Of a DNA stretch of 64,000 nt, positions 1 to 25,101 are shown piece by piece. The notes below the pieces were generated by a model. It did no database searches, was not told the DNA's origin, and was given only the letters and a program-made list of their open reading frames with translations. The translations under genes and the position numbers were made by a program. How positions within the stretch are numbered: the first letter of the stretch is position 1; the number at the start of each line of letters is the position of its first letter. Origin of the DNA: an uncultured Planctomycetota bacterium (lineage in GTDB: Bacteria > Planctomycetota > Planctomycetia > Gemmatales > Gemmataceae); contig CAWKHF010000006.1 in assembly GCA_963849325.1 (NCBI GenBank), positions 352,001 through 416,000 on the forward strand. The letters run 5' to 3'.

Positions 1-446
1 CGGGCCTTGGCTTCGCGGGTCAGTGCGGCGGCGGCCGGGCCGAGTTTCCAGTCGGTGCTGCCGCCGATGAAGAGTGCGTCGAGTTGGTCCCACGGGATGG
101 GATGATGGTCGAGGCCATCCTGGGCGACCAGTGCGACGGGGAGGCCCAGGGCACGGATTGCCGGCGCCCAGACGGGGAGCAGCCGTAGCGTTGCGGCAGC
201 GTCCCCCACGACATCGGGACAGGCGACGAAGCGGCAACCGGCATTGCCGGCAATGCGGCCGAGCATGCGACAGAAGGCGGCCGGGTCGAAGCCGGTGAAG
301 GCGGCATTATCAGCTGCCCACGGCAGTTCGGACCGGAGCACCGTCTCGACGCTGTTACGGGCACCCGGAACGAGCAAGGCCCCCAGGTGGGGCGAGGAAC
401 CGTATCGGCGTAGGGTGGACGTGGCCCCGGAGACGAGCAGACGCAT
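1..446 (-). CDS. TGT/DpdA-like TIM-barrel protein (partial, runs off left edge)
   Basis: Own translation, absent from ORF track: MRLLVSGATSTL...WAADNAAF...FVACPDVVGDAAATL...VAQDG...WDQLDALFIGGSTDWKLG. The DN/PD/QDG/FIGG spacing resembles phage/MGE transglycosylase-like proteins. Confidence 0.6.
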   Translation of the reverse strand, partial: MRLLVSGATSTLRRYGSSPHLGALLVPGARNSVETVLRSELPWAADNAAFTGFDPAAFCRMLGRIAGNAGCRFVACPDVVGDAAATLRLLPVWAPAIRALGLPVALVAQDGLDHHPIPWDQLDALFIGGSTDWKLGPAAAALTREAKA

Positions 447-550
447 GACGGTTTCGACAGGTAGTGGTAGACAAGGTGGAAAATGCCACAGGCCGGCTCT
501 CCACGCAACCGGAATTGTCACTCACGGTCACGTGGCAGCGTTGGCAGCTG

Positions 551-1015
551 TCAATCCGCACGCCCAGGGGCGTATCGCTCCCAGAGCAGTTTGGACTGGA
601 TGGGGTGGCAGTCGTCCCGGTGCCGGGCGGGTCGGCTCCAGGAGCCGCCGCCCCGTTCGCCGACCAGTTGCCATCCGGCTGCCCGGAGGCTGGCGCCTCC
701 CTCGCTCGGCAACGTGTAGGTGCCGATCCGCCGGTAGCCCAGGGCGAACGCCGCCCGAGCAGCGGCCCCGTACAGGAACGAGCAGGCGTTCCGACTGCCA
801 TCGGTGCAAAGGCGGGTTACTTCCAGCGTGAGGCCGTCATCGCGGACGCGCGAGACGGGCCGGCCGATGATGGCGACGCCGACGACCTGGCCGCTTTTCA
901 AGGCAGCCAGGGAGAACTTGTGCCCGACCACCGGCGGGTGGTGCCGGTGGTGCCGCTGGACGAAGGCGTTGGCGTCCGCCAGCGTGATGGGGAGGAGGGC
1001 GAGCCGGCCGGTCAT
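551..1015 (-). CDS. XF1762-family / Mom-like GNAT-fold protein
   Basis: ANAFVQRHHRHH..GHKFS..VGVAIIGRPVSR..DDG.TLEVTRLCTDG..NACSFLYGAAARAA.ALGY..TYTL..E.GASLRAAGW signature. Confidence 0.8.
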   Translation of the reverse strand: MTGRLALLPITLADANAFVQRHHRHHPPVVGHKFSLAALKSGQVVGVAIIGRPVSRVRDDGLTLEVTRLCTDGSRNACSFLYGAAARAAFALGYRRIGTYTLPSEGGASLRAAGWQLVGERGGGSWSRPARHRDDCHPIQSKLLWERYAPGRAD

Positions 1016-1227
1016 GGGTCCAGAGCATACTGCTGGGCCGGCCGTGGCGCAATCGCTTTGGGGCGGCCGTTCTTTTCGGCCAGTGCTTGCTCATAGAGTT
1101 GGTAGGCCCGCTGGCGGGTGGCCTCGCTGTCGGGCCACCCCTGCCGGGCGTGTGCCTGCTCCAGGAACGCGGCGAAGGCGCAGGCGTGGAAGAGGCCGTC
1201 CAGGATTTCATCGGGATCGCCGCTCAT
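1012..1227 (-). CDS. Small hypothetical protein
   Basis: 71-aa ORF with 4-nt start/stop overlaps to both neighbours. Confidence 0.65.
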   Translation of the reverse strand: MSGDPDEILDGLFHACAFAAFLEQAHARQGWPDSEATRQRAYQLYEQALAEKNGRPKAIAPRPAQQYALDP

Positions 1228-1670
1228 GGTTGGCCTCTCCTGCGGTTGTGGCTCGGCTCTGGATAAGAGCGGCCGGTGATTCGCGCAAACACTTCCTCGG
1301 CGTGTTGGCGGGTATCGAAGTCGCCGACGGCCTGGACGCCCTCTCCGGGGATGTGGCCGTACAGGGTCCAGAAATCCGCCTCGGACGGCTCACAGGGTTC
1401 GACGAACGACACCTGCGGCTCGTCCCTGTCGAGGTAGCGTCGGCAAGGCTGGATTTCGTAATCGTCGAAGCGAACCGGGCCTTCCGTTCGCTGATGAGGC
1501 AGCTGGGATGCAGTGTCCCGGCCGGCGTCGAAGGCGGCTTTCAGGGCCGTTTCGACTTGCCAAACAGCAACGTCGTGGAAGTCCAGGCTGTCCGAGCGTC
1601 GGGTTTCCAGGGTGGCGATGCCCAGATGCTCTCTGGCAATGGACGTGAGGATTTGACGGGAACGGTTCAT
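1224..1670 (-). CDS. DUF6900-like domain protein
   Basis: IAREHLGIATLETRRSDSLDFHDVAVWQVETALKAAFDAG motif, common on mobile elements. Confidence 0.7.
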   Translation of the reverse strand: MNRSRQILTSIAREHLGIATLETRRSDSLDFHDVAVWQVETALKAAFDAGRDTASQLPHQRTEGPVRFDDYEIQPCRRYLDRDEPQVSFVEPCEPSEADFWTLYGHIPGEGVQAVGDFDTRQHAEEVFARITGRSYPEPSHNRRRGQP

Positions 1671-1682
1671 GGTGGAGTCCTT

Positions 1683-1952
1683 TCAGGATTGAGGGTTAGA
1701 CAGGCTCAGAAGGGCAGAGGCCCCGTCGGACACCTCGTAGGTGATGGTGCCGGCAGCTTCGTTGATCTCCACCGGGATGGAGCCGCTCAGTAAGCCTCGG
1801 GCCTCTTCGACGGGCAGCCCGTAGCCGTCGCTGAGGATTTGGACGGTGCGTTGGCGCGTCTTCCCCTTGATGCGGTAATCGTTCTGCAAGGCACGGAACA
1901 ATCCCGGTGTGTGGAACATCGGGGTACTGGTCAGTTGTTTGCGGGTGGTCAT
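1683..1952 (-). CDS. Hypothetical protein
   Basis: 89-aa ORF with strong RBS (AAAGGAG) inside the operon. Confidence 0.65.
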   Translation of the reverse strand: MTTRKQLTSTPMFHTPGLFRALQNDYRIKGKTRQRTVQILSDGYGLPVEEARGLLSGSIPVEINEAAGTITYEVSDGASALLSLSNPQS

Positions 1953-1980
1953 AAAAACTCCTTTCGGTTGGTGATTGGGG

Positions 1981-2739
1981 TTACTTCTCGAAGATCATGC
2001 ACGCGTCATGCAGGCCGGGGATGAAGCTGCTGCGGTAGACCTTCCGCGAGCTGCTGGCCCCGTGGCTGAACCGGATAATGTCCGTACCGTGCTGGCGAAG
2101 GCCAACGGCGAAAGCAAGCCGCTTCGTGTGGTAGGTGAGGGGGACAAACCCGGCTTCTCTGTCGCTGTAGTCGCCCATCAGGATCGCCAGCTTTCCACCC
2201 GGTTTCAAAACACGGGCGCAGTTACGAATGAACTGGCCGTAGCGGCGCAGGAACGCCTCCAGGGTCGGAGCGCGGGACAGGTCGCGGGGATCGTCGGCGT
2301 AGAGCTTCTGCCGCCAGTAGGGCGGGTGCGCCCAGATGAAGTCGAACGCCTCGGCGTCGGAAAACCCCTGCGGGTCGCAAGCGTCAATCCCGCGGTGGAT
2401 GTCCCAATCCAGGCAAGGGACTCCGAGTTCCTGGCATACTTCCGAGCATGTCCCGCTACCGCTCATGGGGTCCAGGACCAGGCCGGGCTTGAAGTAGAGG
2501 AGCAAGTCCTTGATGAGATTGCCGCCGCAGTTGCCGGGGTAGCTCCGTTTGCCGTAGTCTCCAGCCACGTGGAAGTGATACAAGCTGGTCAAGTGTGGCA
2601 CCGGGCTGGCGTTCTTCGGCGCCTTCGGTAGCTTGGCGTATAGGACCTGCCCGTGCTCAGGATGGGTTTGCGGCTGGAGCGCGGGTGCGACTCGTTTGAA
2701 GCGAGCGGCCAAGAAGGGATTGATGATAAGCTGTTGCAT
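1981..2739 (-). CDS. Orphan amino (N6-A/N4-C) DNA methyltransferase
   Basis: SAM-binding LDPMSGSGT, catalytic HPPY, RVLKPGG. No restriction enzyme recognised nearby. Confidence 0.8.
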   Translation of the reverse strand: MQQLIINPFLAARFKRVAPALQPQTHPEHGQVLYAKLPKAPKNASPVPHLTSLYHFHVAGDYGKRSYPGNCGGNLIKDLLLYFKPGLVLDPMSGSGTCSEVCQELGVPCLDWDIHRGIDACDPQGFSDAEAFDFIWAHPPYWRQKLYADDPRDLSRAPTLEAFLRRYGQFIRNCARVLKPGGKLAILMGDYSDREAGFVPLTYHTKRLAFAVGLRQHGTDIIRFSHGASSSRKVYRSSFIPGLHDACMIFEK

Positions 2740-2748
2740 GGTGATCTC

Positions 2749-3300
2749 CTATTTGTTTGTGGTTGTTGAAACGTTGGCCCAGACCCATTCCTCAATGGCG
2801 GACTCCGCGGCCTGCTGGAGTCGGATCGCCGTCAGGGGCGGGAGATCGCCGGTTTGCGCCTGGGGATAGCGCTGCACGACGACGTGCCAGAATGCGGCCA
2901 GGGCTTCTTCGGCCACCGGCCGATTCGTTTCGTTGGTTGCCTCGTGGCTCCCTTGGCTGCCGGCGAGGTAGCCGCCATAGGCTCTCCAGGTGAAATCACT
3001 GGTATCGACCACGACGATGCCGGCGTTGCCGGGACTCTCGGCTTCCATTTCGTCCGTTCGGCGAAGGTCCGCCAGCGAGAGGGCGTTGGACCATAGGCCG
3101 AGGCTCAAGTTGCCCTCGATGTTGGCGTGGCAGATGCCCACGAAGCGGGCGGCGGCGTAAGCCGCGTCGCCGAAACGTCCGTGCATGATTGCCTTGAACT
3201 GGTCCAGCCAGCGGGGCACGGCGTCGCCGTGCCAGTGCAGGTAGACGGTTGGTGAAACGCGGTTGTGGTCGAAGAAGAGGACGCAAGCTCGGTTGCCCAT
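2749..3300 (-). CDS. Hypothetical MGE protein
   Basis: Start moved to MGNRACVLFF (ATG 3300, RBS AAAGGA). Contains VYLHWHG motif; may be two fused small genes. Confidence 0.6.
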   Translation of the reverse strand: MGNRACVLFFDHNRVSPTVYLHWHGDAVPRWLDQFKAIMHGRFGDAAYAAARFVGICHANIEGNLSLGLWSNALSLADLRRTDEMEAESPGNAGIVVVDTSDFTWRAYGGYLAGSQGSHEATNETNRPVAEEALAAFWHVVVQRYPQAQTGDLPPLTAIRLQQAAESAIEEWVWANVSTTTNK

Positions 3301-3302
3301 AG

Positions 3303-3578
3303 TCAGATTCCTTTCAAATCGGTGGTGGATGATGCGGTGCGGACGGCCTTTCGCAGCGGCCCCTCGAAGCGGTCTCCCCGCCAGGAATTGGAGCCGAAGG
3401 CGATGTCTCCGGCGGTCAGCTTGTCCACGTCGAGCACGGCACAATGGGCTTCCTGCTCGAAGAGGATGGCGACCTTGCGGCTGCCTTCCGGCCCGGTGTC
3501 CTCGAAGAGGATGACGGCGAAGGGAGCGCCACCGATGCCGTTACGGTGATGGGCGAGGGCGATGATCTGGAGATTCAT
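3303..3578 (-). CDS. Hypothetical protein
   Basis: 91-aa ORF, RBS GGAGG, HRNG..G..F and NSWRGD motifs. Confidence 0.65.
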   Translation of the reverse strand: MNLQIIALAHHRNGIGGAPFAVILFEDTGPEGSRKVAILFEQEAHCAVLDVDKLTAGDIAFGSNSWRGDRFEGPLRKAVRTASSTTDLKGI

Positions 3579-3590
3579 GGCTGCCTCCTG

Positions 3591-3932
3591 CTACGCTTCG
3601 TCGGATTCGTCGTCCTGGTCGATGAACTCGACCCAGACCCTGGCGACGCGGCCTTCGTCGTTGAACTCCGCGTAGACGGGGTAGACTCCATCCCCGTAGC
3701 CGGTGGAAACCACGATGCCGAGACCGGCATGGCCCAGGTCGTAGCCGAACTGCTTGCAGACGGGGTACTGGCCGTCGTCGCGGAGGATGTCGCAGAATTC
3801 GCCCCAGGTCTTGCCGATGGCCTTGGGCGGCTGCTCGGTGTGCAGGATGTAGCAGGGGTCGCCGATCCAGCACAGGCCGGCGTCCACGCCGATTTCGCCG
3901 ATTTGTTTGCGAGTGATGCGGTTGGTATTCAT
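3591..3932 (-). CDS. DUF4241-like protein
   Basis: IGEIGVDAGLCWIGDPCY and STGYGDGVYPVYA motifs; start MNTNRIT after AAAGGA. Confidence 0.65.
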   Translation of the reverse strand: MNTNRITRKQIGEIGVDAGLCWIGDPCYILHTEQPPKAIGKTWGEFCDILRDDGQYPVCKQFGYDLGHAGLGIVVSTGYGDGVYPVYAEFNDEGRVARVWVEFIDQDDESDEA

Positions 3933-3985: not shown

Positions 3986-4198
3986 TTACTTCTGCTCCTG
4001 CACCCGGAGGGCGATGCGGCCGCTGAGGGGCACCACGTCGAAGAGGATGTCGAAGCCCTTGCCGTCCTTGTGGGAGAAGGCGACGCCGATCTCCGTCCAC
4101 TTCGAGTCCTTGCCTTCGCGGTCGCGGATCGAGTAGGCGATGTGGCTCGGCTTTCTCTTGGCTTTGCCGCTGTTTTCCGTGTTCGTGTTCTCAGACAT
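3986..4198 (-). CDS. Small beta-rich protein, DUF736-like (possible ssDNA-binding)
   Basis: KPSHIAYSIRD..SKWTEIGVAFSHKDGKGFDILFD.VPLSGRIALR. First gene of the operon, RBS AAGGAG. Confidence 0.6.
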   Translation of the reverse strand: MSENTNTENSGKAKRKPSHIAYSIRDREGKDSKWTEIGVAFSHKDGKGFDILFDVVPLSGRIALRVQEQK

Positions 4199-4665: not shown

Positions 4666-4974
4666 TCAGAGGCCCAGACGCGGGCGTGGCGCCAGTTGGA
4701 GTGCGTTGTCGAGCGCGTCGATGATCGTCGCTGTGTCGCCTCTCAGCACCGCCCTATCGCTCTGCACAATGCCGATGCCCTTGAGCATCCGGTCGAAGCG
4801 TTCTTCGCGCAGGGCGTTCCCCCGCGCAGGCACTTCAAACTCCAGAACGTGCGTGATCCCCGTGTCGTCCTCTTCGAGCTTCGACGTGGCCACGAAATCG
4901 TAGGGCTTGAGGCCGTGACGCTCGGCGAGCGCATTGACGCGCGTCAACACGGCGACATCCTGGTTGTCGATCAC
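4666..4974 (-). CDS. Hypothetical protein
   Basis: GTG start overlapping the upstream TGA (GTGA) after GGAGG; ends APRPRLGL. Confidence 0.55.
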   Translation of the reverse strand: MIDNQDVAVLTRVNALAERHGLKPYDFVATSKLEEDDTGITHVLEFEVPARGNALREERFDRMLKGIGIVQSDRAVLRGDTATIIDALDNALQLAPRPRLGL

Positions 4975-5414
4975 GAGTTTCCTCCCTGATGGTTGGGGAA
5001 CGGTCTGCCGGCGCCTGCCGGTCCCGGACTGTCCCTGGTAGACAGGTGCAATAACCGACTCACCCAAGAGGCCATGTCATGGGCCGTGAACGGCTTGGGA
5101 AGGAACAGCGTGGCCCCGGCCGCTTGCGCTTCCTTGGCGCTGGAATGCTCCTCGTGGCCCGAGATGGCAATGATCGGGGTGGTGGCATAAGCAGGTAAAC
5201 GACGCACCTGCTTGATGAGTTCCGTCCCGGACATTCCGGGCATGACCAGGTCCACAATGAGAAGGGCCAAGGCGTGTTCCTGCGCCTGCGTGAAGGCCCG
5301 GCTGCCGTTGGCAGCGCCCGCTACGTAGACCGGCAGGTCACGAAGGGCGAAGCGGATCAAGCTGATGATGAGCGCATTGTCGTCAACCACCAGGACGGAG
5401 GCGTTCTCCTTCAT
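4971..5414 (-). CDS. Single-domain response regulator (CheY-like receiver)
   Basis: VLVVDD, phosphoacceptor D in IVDLVMPGMSG, ISG and KPF motifs. Confidence 0.9.
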   Translation of the reverse strand: MKENASVLVVDDNALIISLIRFALRDLPVYVAGAANGSRAFTQAQEHALALLIVDLVMPGMSGTELIKQVRRLPAYATTPIIAISGHEEHSSAKEAQAAGATLFLPKPFTAHDMASWVSRLLHLSTRDSPGPAGAGRPFPNHQGGNS

Positions 5415-5511
5415 GACGCACGGTTCCCTTTCGCATAAAGCCGATGTCCCAGACTGCCACAGAATCGTTAAGCAATCGTTTCCTTTTGCAGACGAAGGGC
5501 CCGGACGCTCC

Positions 5512-6420
5512 TTACTGCATCCGAATCCGGAGGGAGCACGGCCCGGCGGTGCCCGGATGGTCTTCGGTCACGTTGTACCTCCACTCGCGGCGTTTCTGAT
5601 TTTCCACGGCGACGACACACGCGGGCTGTGTGCCGCTGGAGGCCTCTGAGGGTTCCTCGTTGACACCGGCCAGCCCCCGGGCCTGGACGAGACCGTTGTC
5701 GGGAAGTCCGTCATCGATTTTGCTGTCCAGCGCCGAGGCCAGGGCAGGGGTTAGGCCCTGGCTGCCGTATTGATAGGACGGCAAGGGCGTGGCCCGCACT
5801 TCCGTCACCGGCAAGAGCTGAAAATAGTTGGCTCCGCGGAAGGCGTAAACGATGAGGTACTGGCCGGGAGCGATGCGGGCGGCGGGAAGCAACGCCTCCA
5901 CCTCCGTGCAGTTGCCCGCGACCTGGCCTGACGTTTCCACGATCCGGGCGTTGCCTCGCCGGCCAAACGATCCCGATACCAGGTTGGCGTCGGAGAGATG
6001 ATGCCAGAATGACAAGGTTTCCCCAGCCGGCATGGTGGCCTCCGCGGCGCCGCCCTCGATGAGTCCGTTGCCGTCCTGATGGCCCTGGCGGCCCGCCAGC
6101 GTGGTCTCGGAGAAAAACCCGAACGCCGAGGCCCGGCTGGTAGGGATGTCTCCCGGCAACGCATTGTATTTCATCCGGAAGGTATTGACGGCTGATGTAA
6201 GCGTCTCCAGCTGGGCTACGGTAGCCCGCACGTGCGCGGCCTGGAGGAGATGGGTCATGCTGAGCACTCCTGCCGCAATCAAACCGACGACGGTGAAAAC
6301 CACCGCCATCTCGATCAGCCGGACTTCGGCAAGGCGTCGTGTGAGCGATGGCTGCGTGTCCTCTTCTGCTCCGTCAACGAGGACCAGCGGGCGGTGAACC
6401 GTGGAGTGGGAGTCACTCAT
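5512..6420 (-). CDS. Prepilin/pseudopilin-like protein with degenerate cleavage site
   Basis: LIEMAVVFTVVGLIAAGVL...AVNTFRMKYNALPGD...GNGLIE...LDSKIDDGLP..G. The canonical G|F site is replaced by EVR. Confidence 0.7.
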   Translation of the reverse strand: MSDSHSTVHRPLVLVDGAEEDTQPSLTRRLAEVRLIEMAVVFTVVGLIAAGVLSMTHLLQAAHVRATVAQLETLTSAVNTFRMKYNALPGDIPTSRASAFGFFSETTLAGRQGHQDGNGLIEGGAAEATMPAGETLSFWHHLSDANLVSGSFGRRGNARIVETSGQVAGNCTEVEALLPAARIAPGQYLIVYAFRGANYFQLLPVTEVRATPLPSYQYGSQGLTPALASALDSKIDDGLPDNGLVQARGLAGVNEEPSEASSGTQPACVVAVENQKRREWRYNVTEDHPGTAGPCSLRIRMQ

Positions 6421-6893
6421 CCGCGCGAAAGGTCGTCATCAAAGTTGCGTCGCATGTGGAGACGGCCGGCATGGCTGTGCCGGGCGGCGTCCAGGAGGAA
6501 GAGAGCGAGCCGGGTGTGGCCGGACGAGGAAGCCCAATCGAACGGGGTGTAACGCCACTTGTCCTGGGCCACGGGGTCAGCGCCTCCTTTTAGGAGCAGC
6601 CGCGCCAGGTCAAAAAGGCCGTTTCGGGCCGCCCCATGCAGGGCGGTCTGTTGCTGATGATCTTGGGCACGCAGGTCGGTGCCTGTCTCGATCAGCAGGC
6701 GGGCCAGGTCGCCCTGCCGCGCCTCGATGGCACAATGCAGCGGCGTCCGCTGCCTGTCATCCCGGGCATTGACATCGGCCCCGGACGCCAAGGCCGCCTC
6801 GGCGTCTTTGCGATTACCGCTGGCCGCGGCCTGGAAGAGTTGGCTGGTCGCTTCCTGGGGTGTCATGCGGTCCTCCTTGACGTGCCCATCCAT
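6417..6893 (-). CDS. Ankyrin-repeat protein
   Basis: GADVNARD..RTPLH, TALHGAA.NG, TPFDWA repeats; basic C-terminal tail. Confidence 0.9.
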   Translation of the reverse strand: MDGHVKEDRMTPQEATSQLFQAAASGNRKDAEAALASGADVNARDDRQRTPLHCAIEARQGDLARLLIETGTDLRAQDHQQQTALHGAARNGLFDLARLLLKGGADPVAQDKWRYTPFDWASSSGHTRLALFLLDAARHSHAGRLHMRRNFDDDLSRG

Positions 6894-7064
6894 GCTAACG
6901 GAAAAGGGTTAACAAACCTTTACCGCCAGCGTCTCCGCAACGCGAGCGTCGAGGTCCGCCTCAGCCGGTCCAACGAACGACACGGACCAGGCGGGTCGTG
7001 TCGGACGGGCGAGGAGCGCAAGGCAAGGCTTGCCAGAATGATCCGGATGGTGCATGGTGCGGGG

Positions 7065-7187
7065 ATGCAGAAGCGAAAGAAGTCGAAAGGTCTTTTCTGG
7101 ATCGAAGTAGCGATCGCCCTGGTAGCTGTGGGATTGTTCACCGGCATGTTCCGGCTAGGTCTGGCCTTGCGGCAGCTTATCCAGTGA
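7065..7187 (+). pseudogene. Remnant of a second prepilin-like gene
   Basis: MQKRKKSKGLFWIEVAIALVAVGL leader/TM. A short tandem duplication (CTTATCCAGT at 7176 and 7188) coincides with the stop. Confidence 0.4.
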
Positions 7188-7465
7188 CTTATCCAGTCAG
7201 TCCCAATCGGAAGGCTGCGGATGCGTGAGTGACGGAGCGGGGGCAGGCCCCGCAGCACCGGCTGCACCGAGCGGAAATTGGGTGAAGAGCGGAGGCTGTT
7301 TCCGCGCGGCCTTCCGGTCATCGCGGCTTGTCAGGATTGCGGCAGCGAAAGGCGGTCCTTGGGAACGCCATACACGGACAAGCCACTGGATGAGAACGAA
7401 GATCGTGGAGTAATAAAATGGTAACCATAACATGATACAATTTAGGAGCATGTCCAGGAAAAGGA

Positions 7466-8221
7466 ATGGTTATGGCCGATAAGATAGCCGAATTGGTGAA
7501 AGATCCCCAAGTGGCCAAGGAAATAGCGCATTTACGGAAAGTCTTGGAGCTGCCCGATTACGAAGGGATACGCCAGAAGGTTCTTCAAGACCCCGCGGTC
7601 GTTGCCACAAGGGACAACTTCAGGGCCCAACGCCAAGCCTTCCCCGCTGAAATATCCCAACTGTTAGCCGGCGGCCTTCATGAGCGTTTCGTTCCAGAGA
7701 TAACCAAAGGCAGCCGGGTGATTGACAAAGAGGCGCTCGTTAAATCCGTGACGCCGGAAGAAGCGAACAAAGAAATAAATGCGATGGAACAAGAAATGGC
7801 TGCGGTTGAAAACAGGTGGGACATGCTTGGAACCAAGCTCTCTCTGAAAGACATGAGTACGGCGACCTTTATCGCCTCGGGTATGGGCGAGGGTATGTCC
7901 TCGAAGAAGGCAGCGGTCGCACTCCAAATACTGACGGAACGTGACAATCTTGCCTACCGGATACAAGATACCAAGGAGCGCGCCATTACACCGGAAGACA
8001 AAGCCAAGCTCATGGCTCTGGATCGGAAAAATGTCGTAACGGAAGCAGAAGTCGATCTGGCAGTTACAACTCGGCTGGAAAAACTTGGTGTCCATACCCA
8101 AAAAGACCCAGCGCTAGTCGAACTGATTACGAATGCCGTGAAGAATAATAACTCTATTTCCAACACTCCCCCTGCCCCTGAGCCTAAACAATCAAGAGAC
8201 AGTGGCATAAGCCGCTTCTAA
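7466..8221 (+). CDS. Hypothetical helical/coiled-coil protein, visibly lower GC
   Basis: 251-aa charged ORF with RBS AAAAGGA; ends PKQSRDSGISRF. Confidence 0.75.
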   Translation: MVMADKIAELVKDPQVAKEIAHLRKVLELPDYEGIRQKVLQDPAVVATRDNFRAQRQAFPAEISQLLAGGLHERFVPEITKGSRVIDKEALVKSVTPEEANKEINAMEQEMAAVENRWDMLGTKLSLKDMSTATFIASGMGEGMSSKKAAVALQILTERDNLAYRIQDTKERAITPEDKAKLMALDRKNVVTEAEVDLAVTTRLEKLGVHTQKDPALVELITNAVKNNNSISNTPPAPEPKQSRDSGISRF

Positions 8222-8331
8222 GGGACTATCCACTGTCCCCTGGCTGCTATCACGGAAACGTCCCAAATATCTGGTTGCATCCGTGCGATTTCAGTCTTAA
8301 ATACGCACTCAAACCAATGTACGAGGCAACC

Positions 8332-8723
8332 ATGTCCCACTCGAATAGCCCTGCTGACAAGATCCATGATGAGGAACTACGCGCCTTCGCTGCGGACAAG
8401 GCCGCTGGCCAACGCACGGTCTTTATCACCCTCGACTTGCCCACGAGGCACGTCGATTTCCGCACCGTACCCACTGGAGACGGTCCGCACCAAGTACCCA
8501 CTCGCGTTCGTCCCCCAACCGAGGCCGAGCAGGAAGAAATGCGCGCAGGATCGCCGAGGCTCGCGCGTTTCTCGCTGAAGTCTTGAATGAGGATCCTCAA
8601 TGGATGGCTGCCGCCCGGGCCTTCGTCGTGAAGGTGACGAGCGAGCAGCTCTCCACGATTGCCGGTTCGCCCTTGATTCAAGAGATTCTCCCGAACCGCC
8701 AACTTCGCGGCCGCGGCCATTGA
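8332..8723 (+). CDS. Hypothetical protein with subtilase-propeptide (I9)-like C-terminus; one frameshift near 8545
   Basis: Joining frames gives MSHSNSP...RIAEARAFLAEVLNEDPQWMAAARAFVVKVTSEQLSTIAGSPLIQEILPNRQLRGRGH. Confidence 0.45.
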
Positions 8724-8770
8724 AACTTGGCTTGGTCGGATCAAAGAGGGGACTCTCCACCGGACGACAC

Positions 8771-9744
8771 TTATTTGCCCCGCCCAGCTTGCGGTGCCGC
8801 CACGGGCGGCGCAGACCCCTCGGCAGGTGCCAAGGTCTCGATTTGATGGACGAGGCGGTTGAACCCGGTCAGGGTGGCCTGATCCAGCGTGTTGTCCAGA
8901 ACGGCGGTGGTCAAGTGGTCCTGGAGCGCTTGCTTCGCCCGGAAGAGAGCTTTGCTATCCTTGTGGTCCAAAGCGTCCCGCGCATCCCGCAAGTCCTTTT
9001 GCAGTTCCTTGGGCAGCGTGGCCTGGCTCAACTCCTCCAGGCTCTTGACCACGGCCGCTTGTTGCTCTGCCTTCACTTGGGTTCGCTGCTCCTGCCATTG
9101 CCGGAACTGATCGACCGCCTGGACCATTCCTGGGTCTTTGGGGTCGGGCGGAGTGAAGCGGGCCAGGTTCTCTCGGTAACTACCGCTCACCTCCGCGGTG
9201 ACATCCTGGATCACCTTCTCGTAATAGGAGGCCGGATGCTTACCTTGAATCGGGAAGGTCAGGTAGGGCAGCCCGCTGGTCTTGCTGGTGCCGGTGCGGG
9301 TCGTCTCCCGGAGTTCCTCGGGAAGTCCGGCTTTGGCCGCCGCCACGGCCTCGGGGCTGTTGAAATACAGGGTGACGCTCGGCGTCGGTTCGCCTTTGAG
9401 GTGGTCTACCCGGACGTGGGCGTGCCGGTCCTTTTTGATGAGACCGTCCACTTGGGCGCCGATGCCGAGCTTCTGGCATAGGCGGAGAACTCTGGTGGGG
9501 TAAGAGTAATGTGGGATGCTAAGTATTTTCGGCCGCGACCATTTTCCTGGAGGCTGCTGTCCAGGCCGGATCGTTGGAAGAGGCGGTGAGCGGTTCGGGC
9601 ATCCGCCTCGTGGAAGGACGAGTAGCTTATTTTATACTGGCCGGCGCCATCCCGCCGGACCCCCAGGTCGATGGTCTCCGGAAGGCGCAGCGTTTTTTTC
9701 AGGAGATCGACCAGACTTCTTTCGGTTTTGGATTCGAGCGGCAT
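8771..9744 (-). CDS. Hypothetical protein (two track ORFs joined by a 1-nt indel near 9475)
   Basis: ORFs 9406..9744 and 8771..9451 join as ...FSAYAQKLGIGAQVDGLIKK...; ends APQAGRGK. Confidence 0.6.
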
Positions 9745-10073
9745 GGTACTCCTCTGCGCGAGCGGTGGTTACGACTACCAAGCATACATTAAAACATATA
9801 AATAATAGTTAATCTTTGTTTCGGCAGAGGCTCGGCTTCGGTTTCCGTCGGTTAACCTAGCGCGATTCGGGCCTGGGCGCAAGTCGCTTGGCGGCGGGGG
9901 CGGGGTGACTACCCGAACCAGGTGTCCGTCGAGGGGAGCCGAGGGCCGGTCGCAACCCGATTTCCAGGGGAAAGAAAGCGGCGGTGCCAGGGGTGGCGTT
10001 TCGGTGGCGTGAGGGTGACAGGGAGAAGGCCACAATTCTCGCCAAGCGAGGCTGGCTGCGGTGGAGCACATCA

Positions 10074-10113
10074 TCGTTAACATTCCGTTAACGAAAGTGT
10101 GATAGCGTAAAAT
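10074..10113 (+). promoter_or_regulatory. Inverted repeat plus -10 box before relaxase (operator and/or oriT candidate)
   Basis: TCGTTAAC-attcc-GTTAACGA, then AAGTGTGATAGCG, then TAAAAT 5 nt before the ATG. Confidence 0.4.
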
Positions 10114-10118
10114 GAGGC

Positions 10119-12815
10119 ATGATCCGCATCACGCAACAGGATTGTGCCCCGGACGCCAAACGCTATTACGCGACGGCGGACTATTACAGCGAAGGACAGG
10201 AACTGGTCGGTCTGTGGGGCGGTCAAGGCGCCGCCCGGCTGGGGCTGGAAGGGACGGTAGACCAATTCTCTTTTGAGCGCTTGTGCGACAATCTTAGCCC
10301 CAGAACCGGGGAGCCGCTGACGGTGCGAACGCGCGCCGATCGGACCGTGGGCTACGATTTTACCTTCTCGGTCCCCAAGTCGGTGTCGCTCCTGTACGCG
10401 CTGAGCGGCGACGAGGACATCATGGGTGCCTTCCGGTCGGCCGTGGATGAAACCATGCGCGAGATGGAAACGGAGATGAAAACGCGCGTGCGCCGGGGCG
10501 GCAAGGACGAGGATCGCACGACGGGCAACATGGTCTGGGCGGAATTCATTCACACCACGTCCCGGCCGGTGGACGGCCTGCCCGACCCGCAGTTGCACGC
10601 CCACGTCTTCGTGTTCAACACCACTTGGGATCAGGAGGAGGAACGCTGGAAAGCGGGCCAGTTCCGCGAGCTGAAGCGGGATGCTCCGTACTTCCAGGCG
10701 GCCTTCCGGGTGCGGTTGGCGAACCGGCTTCAGGCTCTGGGCTTCGGCGTGGAGCGCAAGCGGGATGACTTCGAGATTGCCGGCGTGCCCAAGGACATGC
10801 TGAAACGCTTCTCGCGGCGCACGGCGTTGATCGAGAAGGTGGCCGGGGAGCGGGGCATCACCGATCCCGACCGCAAGGCGGAACTCGGGGCCGAGACTCG
10901 CGAAAAGAAGGGGGCGGCCCTCGGCTGGGACAGTCTCCGCAAAAAATGGAACGCCCGCCTGAGCGACAAGGAGCGGGAAGCGATCACGGCCGTTCACCGC
11001 CGGGAACATCCCGCTGCCCGGCCCGAGCGGGGCGAGGGCGTGGCTGTGGATCATGCCCTGGAGCACAGTTTTGTGCGTGAGGCCGTGGTGCCCGAACGCA
11101 AGCTGCTGACCGAAGCCCTCAAACGCGGCATCGGCTCCGTCAGGGTCGAGGGCGTGACCCGCGAGATGGCGAAGCGTCCCCTGATCCGCAGCGATGTCGC
11201 CGGACGCATGATGGCGACGACGAAAGAGATGCTGGCCCTGGAATCACGCCTGACCGACTTTGCTCGCCTCGGGCGGGGACGGTGCCGGCCGCTGGGCGAT
11301 CCGCAGCGGCCTTGCTCGCGCGACTGGTTCAACGACGGACAGAAGGCGGCCGTCCGCCACGTGCTCGGCTCGCGTGACCGGGTGATGATTATCCGGGGTG
11401 TCGCCGGCACCGGGAAAACGACGTTGGAACAAGAGATTGGCGAGGCGTTGGCCGAGGCCGGCAAGCCGGTCGTTGCCTTGGCTCAATCGGTCAAAGCCAG
11501 CCGGGAAGTGCTGCGGCAGGAAGCGGGGTTTGCGACCGCTGATACGGTGGCCATGTTTCTCAAAGATGAGAGGATGCAGGAAGCGGCGCGGGACGGCGTT
11601 ATCCTGGTCGATGAGGCCAGCCAGCTCGGCACGCGCGACATGCTCCAGGTCTTCGAGGCGGCGGAGCGGCTGGGCGCCCGCGTCCTGCTCGTGGGCGATA
11701 AACGGCAGCACCGCAGCGTGACGGCCGGGGAGCCGCTCCGGCTGCTGGAGGAGAGGGCCGGGCTGCCGGTGGCCCTCGTCACGGACATCCTGCGGCAGCA
11801 GGGCAACTACAAGAAGGCAGCCGGGCTGCTCAGCGAAGGCCGCACGGAGGAAGCGTTCGAGGAGCTGGACAAGCTCGGCTGGATCAAACAGGTGCCCGAC
11901 GGCGACCGCGACAAGCAGCTGGCCTCTGCCTACCTGGCCGCTGTTGCGGAAAAGAAGCGGGGCGGGGCCTACAAGTCGGCGCTGGTGGTATCGCCGACCC
12001 ATGTGGAGGCGGAGCGCATCACGGCCGCCATCCGCGACGGTCTCCAGGCGGATGGCAAGCTCCGCGGGGAACGGGTCATCCGCAGGTGGGTTCCCGCGCA
12101 CCTGACCGCTGCCCAGAAAGCGGACCCTACCGAATACGAGCCGGGCTATTTGCTTCAATTCCATCAGAATGCCAAGGGCTATCCGAAAGGCTCTCGCCTG
12201 CTGCTGGACGAAGGAGCGGAGCCTCCGACCCGGTTGGCCCAGCGCTTCGAGGTTTACCGGCCGGCGCAGCTCGCTTTGGCGGTCGGCGACCGCGTGCGCG
12301 TCACGGCTGGCGGCAAGACCAAGGACGGCAAGCATCGCTTGAGCAACGGCTCGCTCTTCACGGTCCAGGGGTTCAGCCGGCAAGGGGACATCATCGTGGA
12401 TCGTGGCTGGGTCATCGACCGCGATTTCGGGCACCTGACGCACGGCTACGTCGTGACCAGCCACGCCAGCCAGGGCGTCACGGTGGACAAGGTGTTTGTC
12501 GGCGTCTCCAGCGACTCCTTCCCGGCGACGTACCAGCGGACGGCCTACGTAGCAGTGACGCGCGGCAAGGAACAGGCGCAGATCTTCACCGACGACCGCA
12601 AGGAGCTGCTCAAGGCGGTCAGCCGGCTCGACGAGCCGCTATCCGCCACCGAACTCCTGGAGTCTACCCACGACAAGGCGAAGGTGCGGGATGGGCTGAC
12701 CAAGCCGCTGACGCTGGCCCGGCGTCTGGCCACGTTGATGCCGCACCATCCAGCATGGCGGACGGAAACTACCAGAAACCTGCCTTCGGAACGGGACAGG
12801 AGCCATGACCGATAA
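10119..12815 (+). CDS. trwC: MOBF (TrwC/TraI-type) relaxase-helicase
   Basis: RYYATADYY tyrosines, GYDFTFSVPKSVS, HTTSR..DPQLHAH HUH motif, helicase GVAGTGKTT, VDEAS, HGYVVTSHASQG, YVAVTRG. Confidence 0.95.
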   Translation: MIRITQQDCAPDAKRYYATADYYSEGQELVGLWGGQGAARLGLEGTVDQFSFERLCDNLSPRTGEPLTVRTRADRTVGYDFTFSVPKSVSLLYALSGDEDIMGAFRSAVDETMREMETEMKTRVRRGGKDEDRTTGNMVWAEFIHTTSRPVDGLPDPQLHAHVFVFNTTWDQEEERWKAGQFRELKRDAPYFQAAFRVRLANRLQALGFGVERKRDDFEIAGVPKDMLKRFSRRTALIEKVAGERGITDPDRKAELGAETREKKGAALGWDSLRKKWNARLSDKEREAITAVHRREHPAARPERGEGVAVDHALEHSFVREAVVPERKLLTEALKRGIGSVRVEGVTREMAKRPLIRSDVAGRMMATTKEMLALESRLTDFARLGRGRCRPLGDPQRPCSRDWFNDGQKAAVRHVLGSRDRVMIIRGVAGTGKTTLEQEIGEALAEAGKPVVALAQSVKASREVLRQEAGFATADTVAMFLKDERMQEAARDGVILVDEASQLGTRDMLQVFEAAERLGARVLLVGDKRQHRSVTAGEPLRLLEERAGLPVALVTDILRQQGNYKKAAGLLSEGRTEEAFEELDKLGWIKQVPDGDRDKQLASAYLAAVAEKKRGGAYKSALVVSPTHVEAERITAAIRDGLQADGKLRGERVIRRWVPAHLTAAQKADPTEYEPGYLLQFHQNAKGYPKGSRLLLDEGAEPPTRLAQRFEVYRPAQLALAVGDRVRVTAGGKTKDGKHRLSNGSLFTVQGFSRQGDIIVDRGWVIDRDFGHLTHGYVVTSHASQGVTVDKVFVGVSSDSFPATYQRTAYVAVTRGKEQAQIFTDDRKELLKAVSRLDEPLSATELLESTHDKAKVRDGLTKPLTLARRLATLMPHHPAWRTETTRNLPSERDRSHDR

Positions 12816-13371
12816 ACCAACCTTTCAGGACCGCTTAAAGGGGATTATTCACTCCCCGATGTCCACCGATCCGGATCGTTGGCAGGAAGTCATGCACGCC
12901 AAAGAGCGTGCGGCGTCTCCCGCCAAGAAAGAGGCGGAAGGCGAGGAAACGGAGGTTTCCTGCGGGGCGTTCGGCTACCTGCGGGGAATCCGCGATGTGC
13001 CGGGTGCCTTGGAGCTGCGCTTCCGGGACGGCAATAGCACCTGGTTCCCCTACGGCTGGCTCGGTCCCTGGCACTACAACCCGTCCGAGGGGCTGCTCCT
13101 GAAGTTCTCCGGGGACCTCGTGTACCTGGTTTTGATCCGGGGCAGCAATCTCGATAAGCCCTTGAACGAAGGGGCCATCAATCTGACCACCGGGGGCCTG
13201 CAACGCCATCGCGTCGTGTGGATTCGGGAGATGAGCGAGGAGGACATTCGGCAGGTGGGGGAGAACGGGCCGACCATCGACCGGATCGAGGTCGCGGAAT
13301 TCGAGTCGCAGGCAGCGCTGAAGGAATGGCTCACCGCCAAGGCTCCGGCGTTCGTGCGGGGAGAGGGATGA
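12805..13371 (+). CDS. Hypothetical protein coupled to the relaxase
   Basis: 188-aa ORF overlapping the relaxase stop, RBS AGGAG, core-like codon usage. Confidence 0.75.
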   Translation: MTDKPTFQDRLKGIIHSPMSTDPDRWQEVMHAKERAASPAKKEAEGEETEVSCGAFGYLRGIRDVPGALELRFRDGNSTWFPYGWLGPWHYNPSEGLLLKFSGDLVYLVLIRGSNLDKPLNEGAINLTTGGLQRHRVVWIREMSEEDIRQVGENGPTIDRIEVAEFESQAALKEWLTAKAPAFVRGEG

Positions 13372-15602: not shown

Positions 15603-15734
15603 CCATGTTATTTCGGTATCTTGGTGGACGTGTGGGCGCTCCGTGTACGGGGAGCTTTGTCGTTCGTTGATGAATAATTAAGGTATCGAGAGTAGAATAC
15701 GATAAGGATCGTATTCGTGGAGGAAGCCTAACGC

Positions 15735-23379: not shown

Positions 23380-25101
23380 ATGTACCAGTTTCTTCGCTTC
23401 GTTTCGATCGCCACCGTGCTGCTCCTGGCATACCTGGCCCTCCTGGTGCTTTACCAGGTGCCTTACGCCTGGCTCGTGGCCGCCGGCATCGGCATCGTGC
23501 TGCTATGCCGGAAGACCTACCGCTACACCGCCTATGGCACGGCACGCTGGGCCGACGCCAGCGACATCCCGCACCTGCTCGAAGGCAACGGCCTGATCCT
23601 CGGCCATATCCGGGGCAAGCCGGACAAGCTGCGCGGCACCCTCGCGCTGTTCAACCGGAACCTTCCGGCGCGGGCCGCCTGCCAGCGGTTCCTGATGGCG
23701 TTCCAGCGGAAGCCGCCCAAGTTCCTGGTCCGGCTGACCAAGGCCGTTCACACGGCGGTCTTCGCGCCGACGGGCGTGGGCAAGGGCGTCTCGTGCGTCA
23801 TCCCGTTCCTGAAGACGTGCCCCGACAGTTGCGTGGTCGTGGACTTCAAGGGCGAGAACTACCTAGAAACGGCTGCGGATCGTCGTCGGAAGATGGGGCA
23901 TAAAGTGGTCGTTCTCGATCCGTACCGGATTGTCACTCCGGAGCCAGACACTTTCAACCCGCTTCAGTTCATCGACCGGGAATCGCCCATCGCCATCGAC
24001 GAGTGCCGGGACTTGGCGGAGGCGCTGGTCATCCGGACGGGGCAGGAGAAGGAACCCTTCTGGAACGACGCAGCGGAAATGTGGATTGCCGCCATGACGG
24101 CGGCGGTCGTGGCCTTCGCCGACGACGCCGACAAGTCGCTGCAATCGGTGCGGACGGTGCTCACCAATCCCCAGCGGATGGAGGCGGTCATCCAGCTGCT
24201 GTGCGAATCGGACGTATGGGACGGGATGCTGGCCCGCCTCGGCGGCCAGCTGACGAATTTCAAGGACAAGGAGTTGGCCTCGACGCTCACGACCACCAAC
24301 CGCTTCCTGCGGTTTTTGGACACCATCGCCATCGCGGAGAGCACCAAGCAGAGCAGCTTTAACCCGGCTGACCTGCTCACTGGCAAGATGACCGTGTACC
24401 TGGTCCTGCCGCCCGAACACATGCGGGCGCAGTCGCCGCTGTTGCGGCTGTGGATTGGCTCTCTGCTCCGCGCCGTGGTCCAAGGCGGCTTGCAGGAGAA
24501 GACCCAGGTGCATTTCGTTCTCGACGAGGCGGCCTCCCTGGGACACCTGGACGCCCTCGACGATGCGGTGGACAAGTTCCGCGGCTACGGAGTGCGGCTC
24601 CAGCTTTACTACCAGTCCCTCGGGCAGCTCCAGAAGTGCTGGCCGGAAGGCGGCGCTACGACCCTGCTGTCCAACACCACGCAAGTGTTCTTCGGCGTCA
24701 ACGATCCGCAGACCGCTGGCTATGTCTCGTCACGGCTGGGCGAGGAGACGATCCTCGTGGAGAGTGGCGGGACCAGCTCCAGCACCTCCCGGCAAGCCTC
24801 CCAGCAGGGAAGCAGCAACACCAGCTATTCCACCAGCACCAGCAACAACTGGCAGCAGATGGGCCGGAAGCTGCTCAAGCCGGAGGAAGTCGAAGCGCTC
24901 GATCCGCGGGTGGCGATCACGTTCGCTCCCGGCACGCCGCCTATCTGGACCTGGCTGGTCCGGTACTACGAGCGCGATTTCGGCCGGCCACATGGCCTGG
25001 GGCCGGTGAAGGCGGCGTTGGATGCGGCGTGCCTGTTCCTGGCGGCCGGCCTGCTGGCCGTCTGGTTCACGGCGGCGCTGTTCTACCACACTTTCCCATG
25101 A
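23380..25101 (+). CDS. virD4: VirD4/TraG-type type IV coupling protein
   Basis: Two N-terminal TMs, YGTARWA, Walker A APTGVGKG, VVDFKGE, FNPL, Walker B FVLDEAA, QSLGQL, SSRLGEET. Confidence 0.93.
   Translation: MYQFLRFVSIATVLLLAYLALLVLYQVPYAWLVAAGIGIVLLCRKTYRYTAYGTARWADASDIPHLLEGNGLILGHIRGKPDKLRGTLALFNRNLPARAACQRFLMAFQRKPPKFLVRLTKAVHTAVFAPTGVGKGVSCVIPFLKTCPDSCVVVDFKGENYLETAADRRRKMGHKVVVLDPYRIVTPEPDTFNPLQFIDRESPIAIDECRDLAEALVIRTGQEKEPFWNDAAEMWIAAMTAAVVAFADDADKSLQSVRTVLTNPQRMEAVIQLLCESDVWDGMLARLGGQLTNFKDKELASTLTTTNRFLRFLDTIAIAESTKQSSFNPADLLTGKMTVYLVLPPEHMRAQSPLLRLWIGSLLRAVVQGGLQEKTQVHFVLDEAASLGHLDALDDAVDKFRGYGVRLQLYYQSLGQLQKCWPEGGATTLLSNTTQVFFGVNDPQTAGYVSSRLGEETILVESGGTSSSTSRQASQQGSSNTSYSTSTSNNWQQMGRKLLKPEEVEALDPRVAITFAPGTPPIWTWLVRYYERDFGRPHGLGPVKAALDAACLFLAAGLLAVWFTAALFYHTFP

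Follow-up and report, generated by a model that had tools for sequence, protein, structure and literature searches.

A short DpdA-like barrel protein in a putative anti-restriction operon of an integrated planctomycete element

We analyzed a window of 64,000 nucleotides (nt; C6:352001-416000, on contig CAWKHF010000006.1) from the 8.16-Mb, 14-contig, 85% complete genome of an uncultured planctomycete of the Gemmataceae. Three minus-strand genes lie at its left end: open reading frame 1 (ORF1), which encodes a relative of tRNA-guanine transglycosylases (TGT) and DpdA enzymes, a GNAT gene of the XF1762 family, and a gene for a 252-amino-acid (aa) DNA methyltransferase. An earlier note on this DNA had described them as co-oriented members of a dense operon of small genes on a mobile element, and this description is confirmed. 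Its three candidate DNA-modification genes are likewise present at the coordinates given there, and a fourth enzyme gene, PAPS-reductase-like, follows just outside the window. The setting is an integrated conjugative or mobilisable element. From sequence comparisons we propose that the operon is a modular anti-restriction cassette of independent DNA-modification genes and not a single pathway, in which ORF1 would carry out a 7-deazaguanine exchange; we judge this proposal somewhat better than an even bet. The layered cassette of the earlier note fits the setting and is the version that we favour over one common pathway.

Results

Relationship of ORF1 to TGT and DpdA enzymes

The ORF1 family was compared by hhalign with an alignment of 74 phage DpdA sequences, which was built from the DpdA of Arthrobacter phage Sonali. 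The two profiles match over 142 columns with a probability of 93.8% (E = 1.7e-7), which agrees with the earlier assignment of ORF1 as TGT/DpdA-like. Control runs of the ORF1 profile against the GNAT and the methylase gave 0.26% and 0.30%; against the single Sonali DpdA sequence the value was 0.9%, and only the profile-profile run was significant. The alignment pairs D46, D78, H154 and D176 of ORF1 with D37, D73, H155 and D174 of the phage enzymes, positions which are invariant in DpdA. For Salmonella DpdA, a passage of PMC10164549 names Asp95 as general acid/base, Asp130 and His181 as base-recognition residues and Asp256 as nucleophile.

The same four residues are invariant in the ORF1 family, together with N47, Q109, G156, N159, R163 and G177 (45-67 members). 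The motifs of the family are WAADN, PDVVGD, QDG, GGSTxWK, HxGRxN and GCDSxDGS. In an AlphaFold2 model of ORF1 (pLDDT 92) residues 1-200 form eight strands, each with a following helix, and every motif lies at the C-terminal end of a barrel strand. A barrel with predicted catalytic aspartates, which had been named earlier as a check on the assignment, is present in the model, and the aspartates D46, D78 and D176 are invariant. In a fold search of BFVD the top 20 included several phage 'queuine tRNA-ribosyltransferases'. On these comparisons we place ORF1 in the TGT/DpdA superfamily as a predicted minimal barrel of ~200 aa; the assignment holds at superfamily level.

The Sonali genome (L010) holds both a short member of the ORF1 family, gp81 (4884-5501), and a true DpdA together with QueC/D/E, gp87-90 (7871-10417). 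The two proteins, gp81 and DpdA gp87, are probably not redundant. The short family seems to have been missed by DpdA catalogues: none of five short-family phages was found in eight supplementary files of the 2019 catalogue (PMC6884629), in which phage Orion is present. A supplement file of a 2023 DpdA paper contained none of six phage names and is little informative, since Sonali is absent from it too. Judged from listings and abstracts, literature on 'DpdA-like' proteins comprised phage genome notes or DpdA papers only, and literature pairing YhhQ with DpdA, judged from listings and passages, yielded no short family.

The ORF1 gene, its domains and its family

The earlier note regarded ORF1 as truncated, which is not the case. 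The reading frame is cut by the window edge only; it extends 633 nt beyond the window start, and the gene of 359 aa is intact in the genome, where it occurs as a single copy. Its start, the ATG at position 446 (MRLLVSGAT), was set by alignment of homologues. A 91% identical copy on the metagenome contig L174 aligns over the whole 359 aa without stops, and the ratio of nonsynonymous to synonymous substitution rates (dN/dS) between the two is 0.14.

Residues 1-205 of the protein correspond to the short DpdA-like TIM barrel, of which residues 21-203 match phrog_15826, a family of unknown function, at 3.4e-53. Residues ~225-355, encoded outside the window, form an ISL3-type Zn-ribbon and helix-turn-helix (HTH). 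Searches of Pfam and NCBIfam with ORF1 returned only this ISL3 transposase-type Zn-ribbon/HTH, at residues ~242-353.

With a limit of E = 0.001, a search of a large protein collection retrieved 2118 homologues, which fall into two architectures: 29 of the 120 homologues listed have 310-377 aa, while the rest are mostly ~200 aa long. Zn_ribbon_ISL3 was detected in 25 and the HTH in 13 of 67 aligned members, and all 25 long members of this alignment have the Zn-ribbon. In a quick tree with midpoint root the fused forms constitute one clade (SH-aLRT 98, 8 rows). The fusion is a genuine conserved architecture. The possibility that the ISL3-like C-terminus is debris of an insertion sequence was considered and is ruled out, because 25 divergent homologues keep this part, the fused forms make up a single clade and the gene is under purifying selection.

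The family is almost confined to phages, plasmids and integrated elements. A tblastn search located it in 27 phage records at <60% identity; phage homologues at 46-55% identity had been labeled 'DpdA-like tRNA-guanine transglycosylase' by actinophage annotators. The 213-aa homologue of Erythrobacter phage ZS04 (L220, 5881-6522) is annotated as a 'DarB-like antirestriction protein', which may reflect either a shared domain or an annotation artefact. Identical ORF1 homologues with transporter neighbours occur on four ~39-kb contigs (L050, L051, L053 and L055) from metagenome-assembled genomes (MAGs) of Dehalococcoidia, Gammaproteobacteria and Stappiaceae. Probably these are one phage or plasmid that was binned into unrelated genomes.

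Gene neighbours of the ORF1 family

The neighbourhood of ORF1 relatives was surveyed in the best 80 of 204 genome relatives and in the locus itself, with all flanking ORFs clustered, and in a metagenome set of 45 loci, mostly on short contigs. The commonest neighbour in the genome set is a co-oriented, abutting transporter of the Vut_1/YhhQ type, found at 25 of 81 loci and in 18 of 46 groups after dereplication at 75% identity. These transporters match Pfam Vut_1 above the cut-off and the queuosine-precursor transporter models of NCBIfam below it; one of them, on a Streptomyces plasmid, bears the PGAP label queuosine salvage. A neighbour cluster whose representative has a TrwC domain (59 loci) was left uncounted, as it was heterogeneous and had pulled in spurious ORFs.

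A search with QueC/D/E showed QueE or QueD abutting an ORF1 homologue at 4 of 125 loci. The clearest gene order is that of L178, where a homologue 62% identical to ORF1 stands between QueE and QueD; this QueE matches PDB entry 4njg at 2.4e-84 and this QueD matches PTPS-type structures at 1.8e-14. The transporter and que contexts are scattered over the ORF1-family tree. These independent contexts support 7-deazaguanine chemistry for the family; the substrate itself and DNA as the target are predictions.

The left flank of ORF1, where the earlier note had suggested looking for folE, queC, queD and queE, contains no que or folE genes. Candidates exist in the host genome on other contigs, namely genes for QueC (233 bits) and TGT (515 bits) and QueE-like and QueD-like genes. 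With no biosynthesis genes in cis, ORF1 would have to take its precursor from the host or depend on a supply from outside. At C3:163063-164102, apart from the main queC on contig C12, a second gene of the QueC type (85.6 bits) has a QueD-like gene immediately after it; the host may possess a further deazaguanine-related locus here.

The XF1762 protein and the methylase

The GNAT protein spans positions 2-143 of the 143-position XF1762_fam profile (NF045478) with 211 bits against a cut-off of 50. The family is large, with 3849 representatives at E up to 0.001 in a library clustered at 50% identity. The earlier designation XF1762/Mom-like can be kept in part: membership of the XF1762 family stands and the protein shares phrog_1384 with Mom of phage Mu (7.8e-84 for Mom), but it is not Mom itself. 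The Pfam model of Mom (PF25680) scores 16.7 bits (E = 0.0059), below the cut-off of 27.1. The invariant residues H23, R68 and S79 align with H58, R111 and S124 of Mom in hhalign and MAFFT (hhalign probability 5%). After S79 follow 75 residues, compared with 117 after S124 of Mom, and all 11 aligned XF1762 proteins have a 22-residue gap relative to Mom in MAFFT. The RCGR of Mom, which contains R151, falls into a 4-residue insertion missing from XF1762, next to a conserved Glu column, in a region where the MAFFT alignment is uncertain. Passages of PMC13219725 (2026) describe Gly-tRNA(Gly) as the donor for Mu Mom, R111, S124 and R151 as essential, and an HTH-like insertion at ~175-209 as essential too. 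As the stretch of this insertion is missing and the RCGR appears to be, the sequence comparison presents XF1762 as a relative of Mom and not as Mom. A PDB sequence search gave no match for the XF1762 protein, and nothing was found in the literature under the name XF1762.

The methylase matches the Pfam family N6_N4_Mtase at 8.4e-9, above the cut-off of 26.7 bits. It has 3027 homologues, of which the top 120 are 75-94% identical and ~250 aa long. Motif I, D90-P-M-x-G-x-G-T97 (here DPMSGSGT), is invariant or nearly so and precedes motif IV. More distant relatives were present on plasmids: of 861 such records, most are enterobacterial and 775 are predicted to be conjugative. This accords with the earlier idea of an orphan methyltransferase, while the absence of a partner nuclease is unproven, because six small ORFs of the operon match no family; among the operon genes scanned with Pfam, NCBIfam, PHROGs and PADLOC no nuclease family was matched. 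A term search of the main text of PMC11541004, on orphan methylases of plasmid leading regions, returned no Mom-like or transglycosylase genes; the same type of search in the main texts of PMC5512222, on polyvalent proteins, and PMC11541004 returned no TGT-like, Mom or PAPS-reductase genes.

Gene combinations around ORF1

The earlier note had raised a pathway in which ORF1, XF1762 and the methylase act together on the same base, which would yield one new hypermodification. In genomes, at a distance of up to 8 kb from ORF1 homologues, we found XF1762 at 6, the PAPS-reductase-like gene at 7 and the methylase at 3 of 80 loci; at metagenome loci XF1762 was present at 4 and the PAPS-reductase-like gene at 3 of 45. 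The full trio occurs at a single metagenome locus, on the 110-kb contig L174, which carries a near-identical element whose operon is kept at 86-96% amino-acid identity. The 3.6-kb contig L175 belongs to the same element and ends before the methylase. No trio was seen at the 80 genome loci, at 80 viral XF1762 loci (the best 80 of at least 583 relatives) or at the remaining 43 metagenome loci, many of them on short contigs. The trio thus recurs in the same element lineage only.

A paralogous element on contig C9 (L005, ~4800-11400) bears directly on this question. It contains, in order, p70, p183, the methylase, DUF6900, p71, XF1762 and p70, and it has neither ORF1 nor a PAPS-reductase-like gene. 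The arrangement is that of a shared backbone block, from the methylase to XF1762, to which a pair made up of ORF1 and the PAPS-reductase-like gene has been added in the lineage of the C6 element. The methylase copy of the C9 element matches in two pieces in different frames, with four stops in the translated span, and may be frameshifted. The methylase family is also found on its 861 plasmids with no ORF1 homologue among those listed. The single dense operon and its conservation on L174 speak for joint action on one base; given that L174 and L175 represent one lineage and that the C9 element does without ORF1, we consider such cooperation very improbable, and this part of the earlier note is not sustained.

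The viral XF1762 loci have partners of another kind. The co-oriented gene found most often beside them encodes a Dcm-like C5 methylase (22/80); an ORF1 homologue was nearby in 1 of 80, and the PAPS-reductase-like, 252-aa methylase and transporter genes in none. The loci in which XF1762 lies close to an ORF1 homologue fall at four separate places on the ORF1-family tree. The modification genes form a pool that is freely combined across phages, plasmids and integrated elements.

A closer tie may exist between ORF1 and the gene 122 nt downstream of it. The PAPS-reductase-like protein is a PP-loop protein without a Pfam match, and a PDB sequence search revealed nothing meaningful for it. Purifying selection is stronger on its gene than on any other of the operon (dN/dS 0.08). 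ORF1 and this enzyme, possibly with XF1762, could form a two-step module: ORF1 would insert a 7-deazaguanine, whose side chain would then be elaborated on DNA by the PP-loop enzyme, the GNAT or both, in the manner of DpdC, ArcS or Gat-QueC in known systems. Several contexts argue for such a module. Apart from the short distance and the strong selection, the gene recurs near ORF1 homologues at the genome and metagenome loci counted above; it stands directly upstream of an independent fused form (L177); Arthrobacter phage Aoka has both proteins (gp36 and gp40); and three of the 80 genome loci, all from Micromonosporaceae and with an integrase and other methylases nearby, have the order PAPS-reductase-like gene, XF1762, transporter, ORF1 homologue. 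On the other hand, the gene is missing at 115 of 125 family loci, and the close fused relatives L012 and L013 are without it within 8 kb. Among phage records, 49 have the PAPS-reductase-like gene compared with 27 that have the ORF1 family, and the overlap among the rows listed is Aoka only. Furthermore, no chemistry is known to tie PAPS-reductase-type enzymes to deazaguanines, QueC being a different PP-loop family. We regard the two-step module as rather unlikely. Literature on PAPS reductases in connection with DNA modification, transglycosylases and phages comprised unrelated reviews or analyses only.

A bolder version of this idea is more doubtful still. ORF1 might install a 7-deazaguanine with a reactive side chain, such as the aminomethyl group of preQ1 or the carboxylate of 7-carboxy-7-deazaguanine (CDG), which XF1762 would then acylate or, by analogy with the charged tRNA used by Mom, aminoacylate and which the PP-loop enzyme would activate, with the domesticated transposase domain picking the sites. 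The outcome would be a hypermodified 7-deazaguanine of a kind that has not been described. The scattered loci with XF1762 close to an ORF1 homologue bear on this reading, as do the three actinobacterial loci, which repeat the ORF1 homologue, XF1762 and the PAPS-reductase-like gene together with a transporter; we nevertheless hold it to be a long shot.

The operon and its mobile element

All genes of the operon are on the minus strand (Table 1). From position 4198 down to the gene after ORF1 the successive gaps measure 53, 12, 2, 9, 28, 12, -4, -4, 104 and 122 nt. Every operon gene tested is under purifying selection (dN/dS 0.08-0.39). The 71-aa ORF (p71) has syntenic copies in the C9 element and in L016, L017, L174 and L175. 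The genes studied have their nearest relatives in MAGs of the Gemmataceae, and DUF1559/N-methyl genes, which are typical of planctomycetes, begin at 28.6 kb of the window.

Table 1. Features of the operon and the element (positions in the window, or on contig C6 where so marked).
Feature	Position	Strand	Matches and remarks
ORF1, first 148 codons	1..446 (3-446)	-	whole gene 359 aa, C6:351367-352446
XF1762-family GNAT, Mom-related, 154 aa	551..1015	-	NF045478 at 6e-63; phrog_1384 at 1.8e-37
71-aa ORF (p71)	1012..1227	-	no Pfam/NCBIfam/PHROGs match; 4-nt overlap with a neighbour at both start and stop
148-aa protein, N-terminal DUF6900 domain	1224..1670	-	PF21841 at 3.1e-24; phrog_2555 at 3.1e-19
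89-aa ORF	1683..1952	-	no Pfam/NCBIfam/PHROGs match; 91% identical copy in L174
252-aa S-adenosylmethionine (SAM)-dependent DNA methyltransferase	1981..2739	-	PF01555 at 36.1 bits; PADLOC MTase_II at 8e-14
183-aa ORF (p183)	2749..3300	-	no Pfam/NCBIfam/PHROGs/PADLOC match; copies in C9 element and L174
91-aa ORF	3303..3578	-	no Pfam/NCBIfam/PHROGs match
113-aa DUF4241-like protein	3591..3932	-	PF14025 at 6.3e-7; phrog_5209 at 3.5e-19
70-aa ORF (p70), opens the dense run	3986..4198	-	no family match; two more copies in C9 element
TrwC-type relaxase-helicase	10119..12815	+	PF08751 at 8.4e-73; AAA_30 at 8e-47
Type IV coupling protein, TraG/VirD4 type	23380..25101	+	PF02534 at 5.2e-68
PAPS-reductase-like PP-loop protein	C6:350387-351244	-	phrog_424 at 1.7e-38; PADLOC SspD at 6.5e-13
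1874-aa methylase and SNF2 helicase	C6:339386-345010	-	phrog_10089 'DarB-like antirestriction', E = 0, 1565 bits

The window contains in addition genes for ParB, a resolvase and a serine recombinase. On the left flank, on the strand of ORF1, follow in order the PAPS-reductase-like gene, a 186-aa ORF, ParA, a split RepA_C and the 1874-aa methylase-helicase, whose stop is ~6.4 kb downstream of the ORF1 stop. Because TrwC, the coupling protein, ParB, resolvase, serine recombinase, ParA and RepA_C are present, the setting is an integrated conjugative or mobilisable element. Below position 9451, the genes on the minus strand point away from the relaxase gene; from this orientation the operon may be placed in a leading region.

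Three side observations concern the element. The RepA_C similarity is split over two overlapping frames (L004:12467-13603 and 12688-13236, minus strand); the rep gene may have suffered a frameshift, which might be expected once an element is integrated. Between relaxase and resolvase (13860-18923, plus strand) lie a ShlB/FhaC-type transporter and a 1062-aa exoprotein with a TPS domain, a two-partner secretion pair that is apparently cargo of the element. A stand-alone response-regulator receiver, a 302-aa protein and an ankyrin-repeat protein are encoded at 4971-6893 between the relaxase gene and the operon, on the operon strand.

In another reading the element would have a restriction-type or exclusion system of its own to which the marks belong, and unmarked DNA would be attacked by a nuclease hidden among the small ORFs, in the way of bacterial Dpd. 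Six operon ORFs without a family leave room for it, and DpdA of bacteria works in a restriction-modification-like island according to PMC10164549. Against it, no nuclease, helicase or ATPase partner was matched in the operon, PADLOC gave no match for ORF1 and no adjacent Dpd partner, and anti-restriction is suggested both by the DarB-like protein and by an orphan methylase of the plasmid type. We consider this role highly unlikely.

Discussion

Proposed function

The modular anti-restriction cassette can be worded as follows. The three genes would form the downstream portion of a long accessory operon, with all genes in one orientation, on the integrated conjugative or mobilisable element; this operon gathers independent DNA-modification genes and so may shield the DNA of the element from restriction in new hosts. 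ORF1 is predicted to replace a guanine of DNA by a 7-deazaguanine (preQ0, or a neighbour such as CDG or preQ1) drawn from the queuosine-precursor pool of the host. By the alignment with DpdA, D46 would act as general acid/base, D78 and H154 in base recognition and D176 as nucleophile. The ISL3-type Zn-ribbon/HTH could keep the protein on DNA or set its target sites. The XF1762 GNAT is a candidate for acylation of DNA, and the 252-aa enzyme probably acts as an orphan DNA methyltransferase of the plasmid type.

A number of observations weigh against this proposal. The ORF1 barrel ends ~25 residues past the nucleophile Asp and has no Zn subdomain of the TGT/DpdA type; in keeping with this, short forms of the family stop 20-30 residues after D176, residues 1-205 contain no CxCxxC...H pattern, and the Zn-ribbon at ~250-300 is of the ISL3 transposase type. 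The Pfam TGT model (PF01702) matched neither ORF1 nor any of 67 family members at E up to 5, and a PDB sequence search gave no match for ORF1 or its profile. A Foldseek comparison, which the earlier note had proposed, found only generic TIM barrels in the PDB for the ORF1 model: the barrel is seen, but TGT/DpdA do not stand out. In VIA-align the top Z score belongs to pyruvate kinase (15.9), and TGT 3unt (13.8), Cap10 (13.5), arcTGT 1iq8 (13.4) and DpdA 7ui4 (12.8) lie within the same band; since unrelated barrels score as high as TGT/DpdA or higher, the fold search does not discriminate. The ORF1 locus itself is without transporter and que genes, and no Vut_1 gene was detected in the 85%-complete host genome. 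Several short-family phages infect Mycobacterium smegmatis, a host described in a passage of PMC6884629 as being without the preQ0 pathway, which makes a 7-deazaguanine substrate doubtful for these members at least. Literature searches found no published assays of the short family.

The other genes add to this list. The likeness of XF1762 to Mom consists of the PHROG profile and alignments of low confidence. Canonical motif IV of N6/N4 methylases is (D/N/S)-P-P-(Y/F/W). In the methylase described here it reads H138-P139-(P/A)-Y141 in 14 of 14 aligned sequences, with the His invariant. No oriT was found, and scans for inverted repeats, promoters and terminators gave nothing above chance.

The features of the barrel and the mycobacteriophage hosts could also mean that ORF1 is not a DNA inserter of 7-deazaguanine. 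Its substrate might be tRNA, or it might excise or exchange some other base; alternatively its main role could be that of a regulator that binds DNA by means of the ISL3-type domain. Such roles would further agree with phage Sonali, whose gp81 stands beside a bona fide DpdA with QueC/D/E and which suggests non-redundant functions, and with ~96 of 125 loci that have neither transporter nor que genes in the tblastn and cluster screen. Yet all four catalytic and recognition residues of DpdA are invariant in the family, and an invariant active site speaks against a purely regulatory role. Transporter or que neighbours appear in unrelated branches of the tree, and the near-exclusive occurrence on mobile elements suits self-marking of DNA better than tRNA modification. 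On balance we view this alternative as unlikely, if one to be taken seriously, and prefer 7-deazaguanine exchange in DNA within the cassette.

Significance

The enzymes so far linked to 7-deazaguanine modification of DNA are DpdA proteins, which have 280-410 aa and a Zn subdomain. The family described here, a 200-aa barrel with >2,000 members in mobile elements of many phyla, keeps the catalytic residues and the gene neighbours of DpdA. If ORF1 is active, no smaller DNA base-exchange enzyme would be known, and marking with deazaguanines would reach beyond phages to conjugative elements; its fusion to the ISL3 domain would be a natural example of aiming such an enzyme at DNA. The locus appears to stack chemically different marks, namely base exchange, Mom-like acylation and methylation, next to a DarB-like protein, which bears on how plasmids cross restriction barriers. 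XF1762 would be a large sister family of Mom, whose tRNA-dependent chemistry was worked out only in 2026.

Comparison with known systems

ORF1 resembles DpdA of bacteria and the phage types DpdA1-DpdA4 in its TIM barrel and in the acid/base Asp, the base-recognizing Asp and His and the nucleophile Asp, which occur in the same order. It too is located on a mobile element, and its relatives lie beside YhhQ-like transporters or QueE/QueD. It differs from DpdA in its short barrel and missing Zn subdomain and Pfam TGT match, in belonging to phrog_15826 where Sonali DpdA belongs to phrog_887/7068, and in the ISL3-type fusion of its clade.

In phage CAjan, as a passage of PMC7544227 describes, yhhQ adjoins dpdA and the que genes of a preQ0 cluster (folE-queD-queE-queC-yhhQ-dpdA). 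The relatives of ORF1 similarly pair a transporter with a transglycosylase, but unlike CAjan the ORF1 locus and most of its relatives have no biosynthesis genes in cis.

With Mu Mom, a Gly-tRNA-dependent N6-adenine DNA acyltransferase by the passages of PMC13219725, XF1762 has in common a GNAT core, phrog_1384 and the aligned H/R/S residues. It is shorter (154 aa compared with 241 aa), remains under the Pfam Mom cut-off and is without the insertion reported there as essential.

The methylase is comparable to the orphan methylases of plasmid leading regions (PMC11541004). It is a small, stand-alone protein of the N6_N4 type with no nuclease recognised beside it; its family is mostly borne by conjugative plasmids (775/861) and its gene points away from the relaxase gene. 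The difference is the motif IV of the form H-P-(P/A)-Y.

Finally, the 1874-aa methylase-helicase resembles DarB of phage P1 through its match to the 'DarB-like antirestriction' family. It is a gene separate from the three-gene finding, and the conjugative element differs from P1 in having no capsid-injection setting. The presence of such a protein on the operon strand supports an anti-restriction setting.

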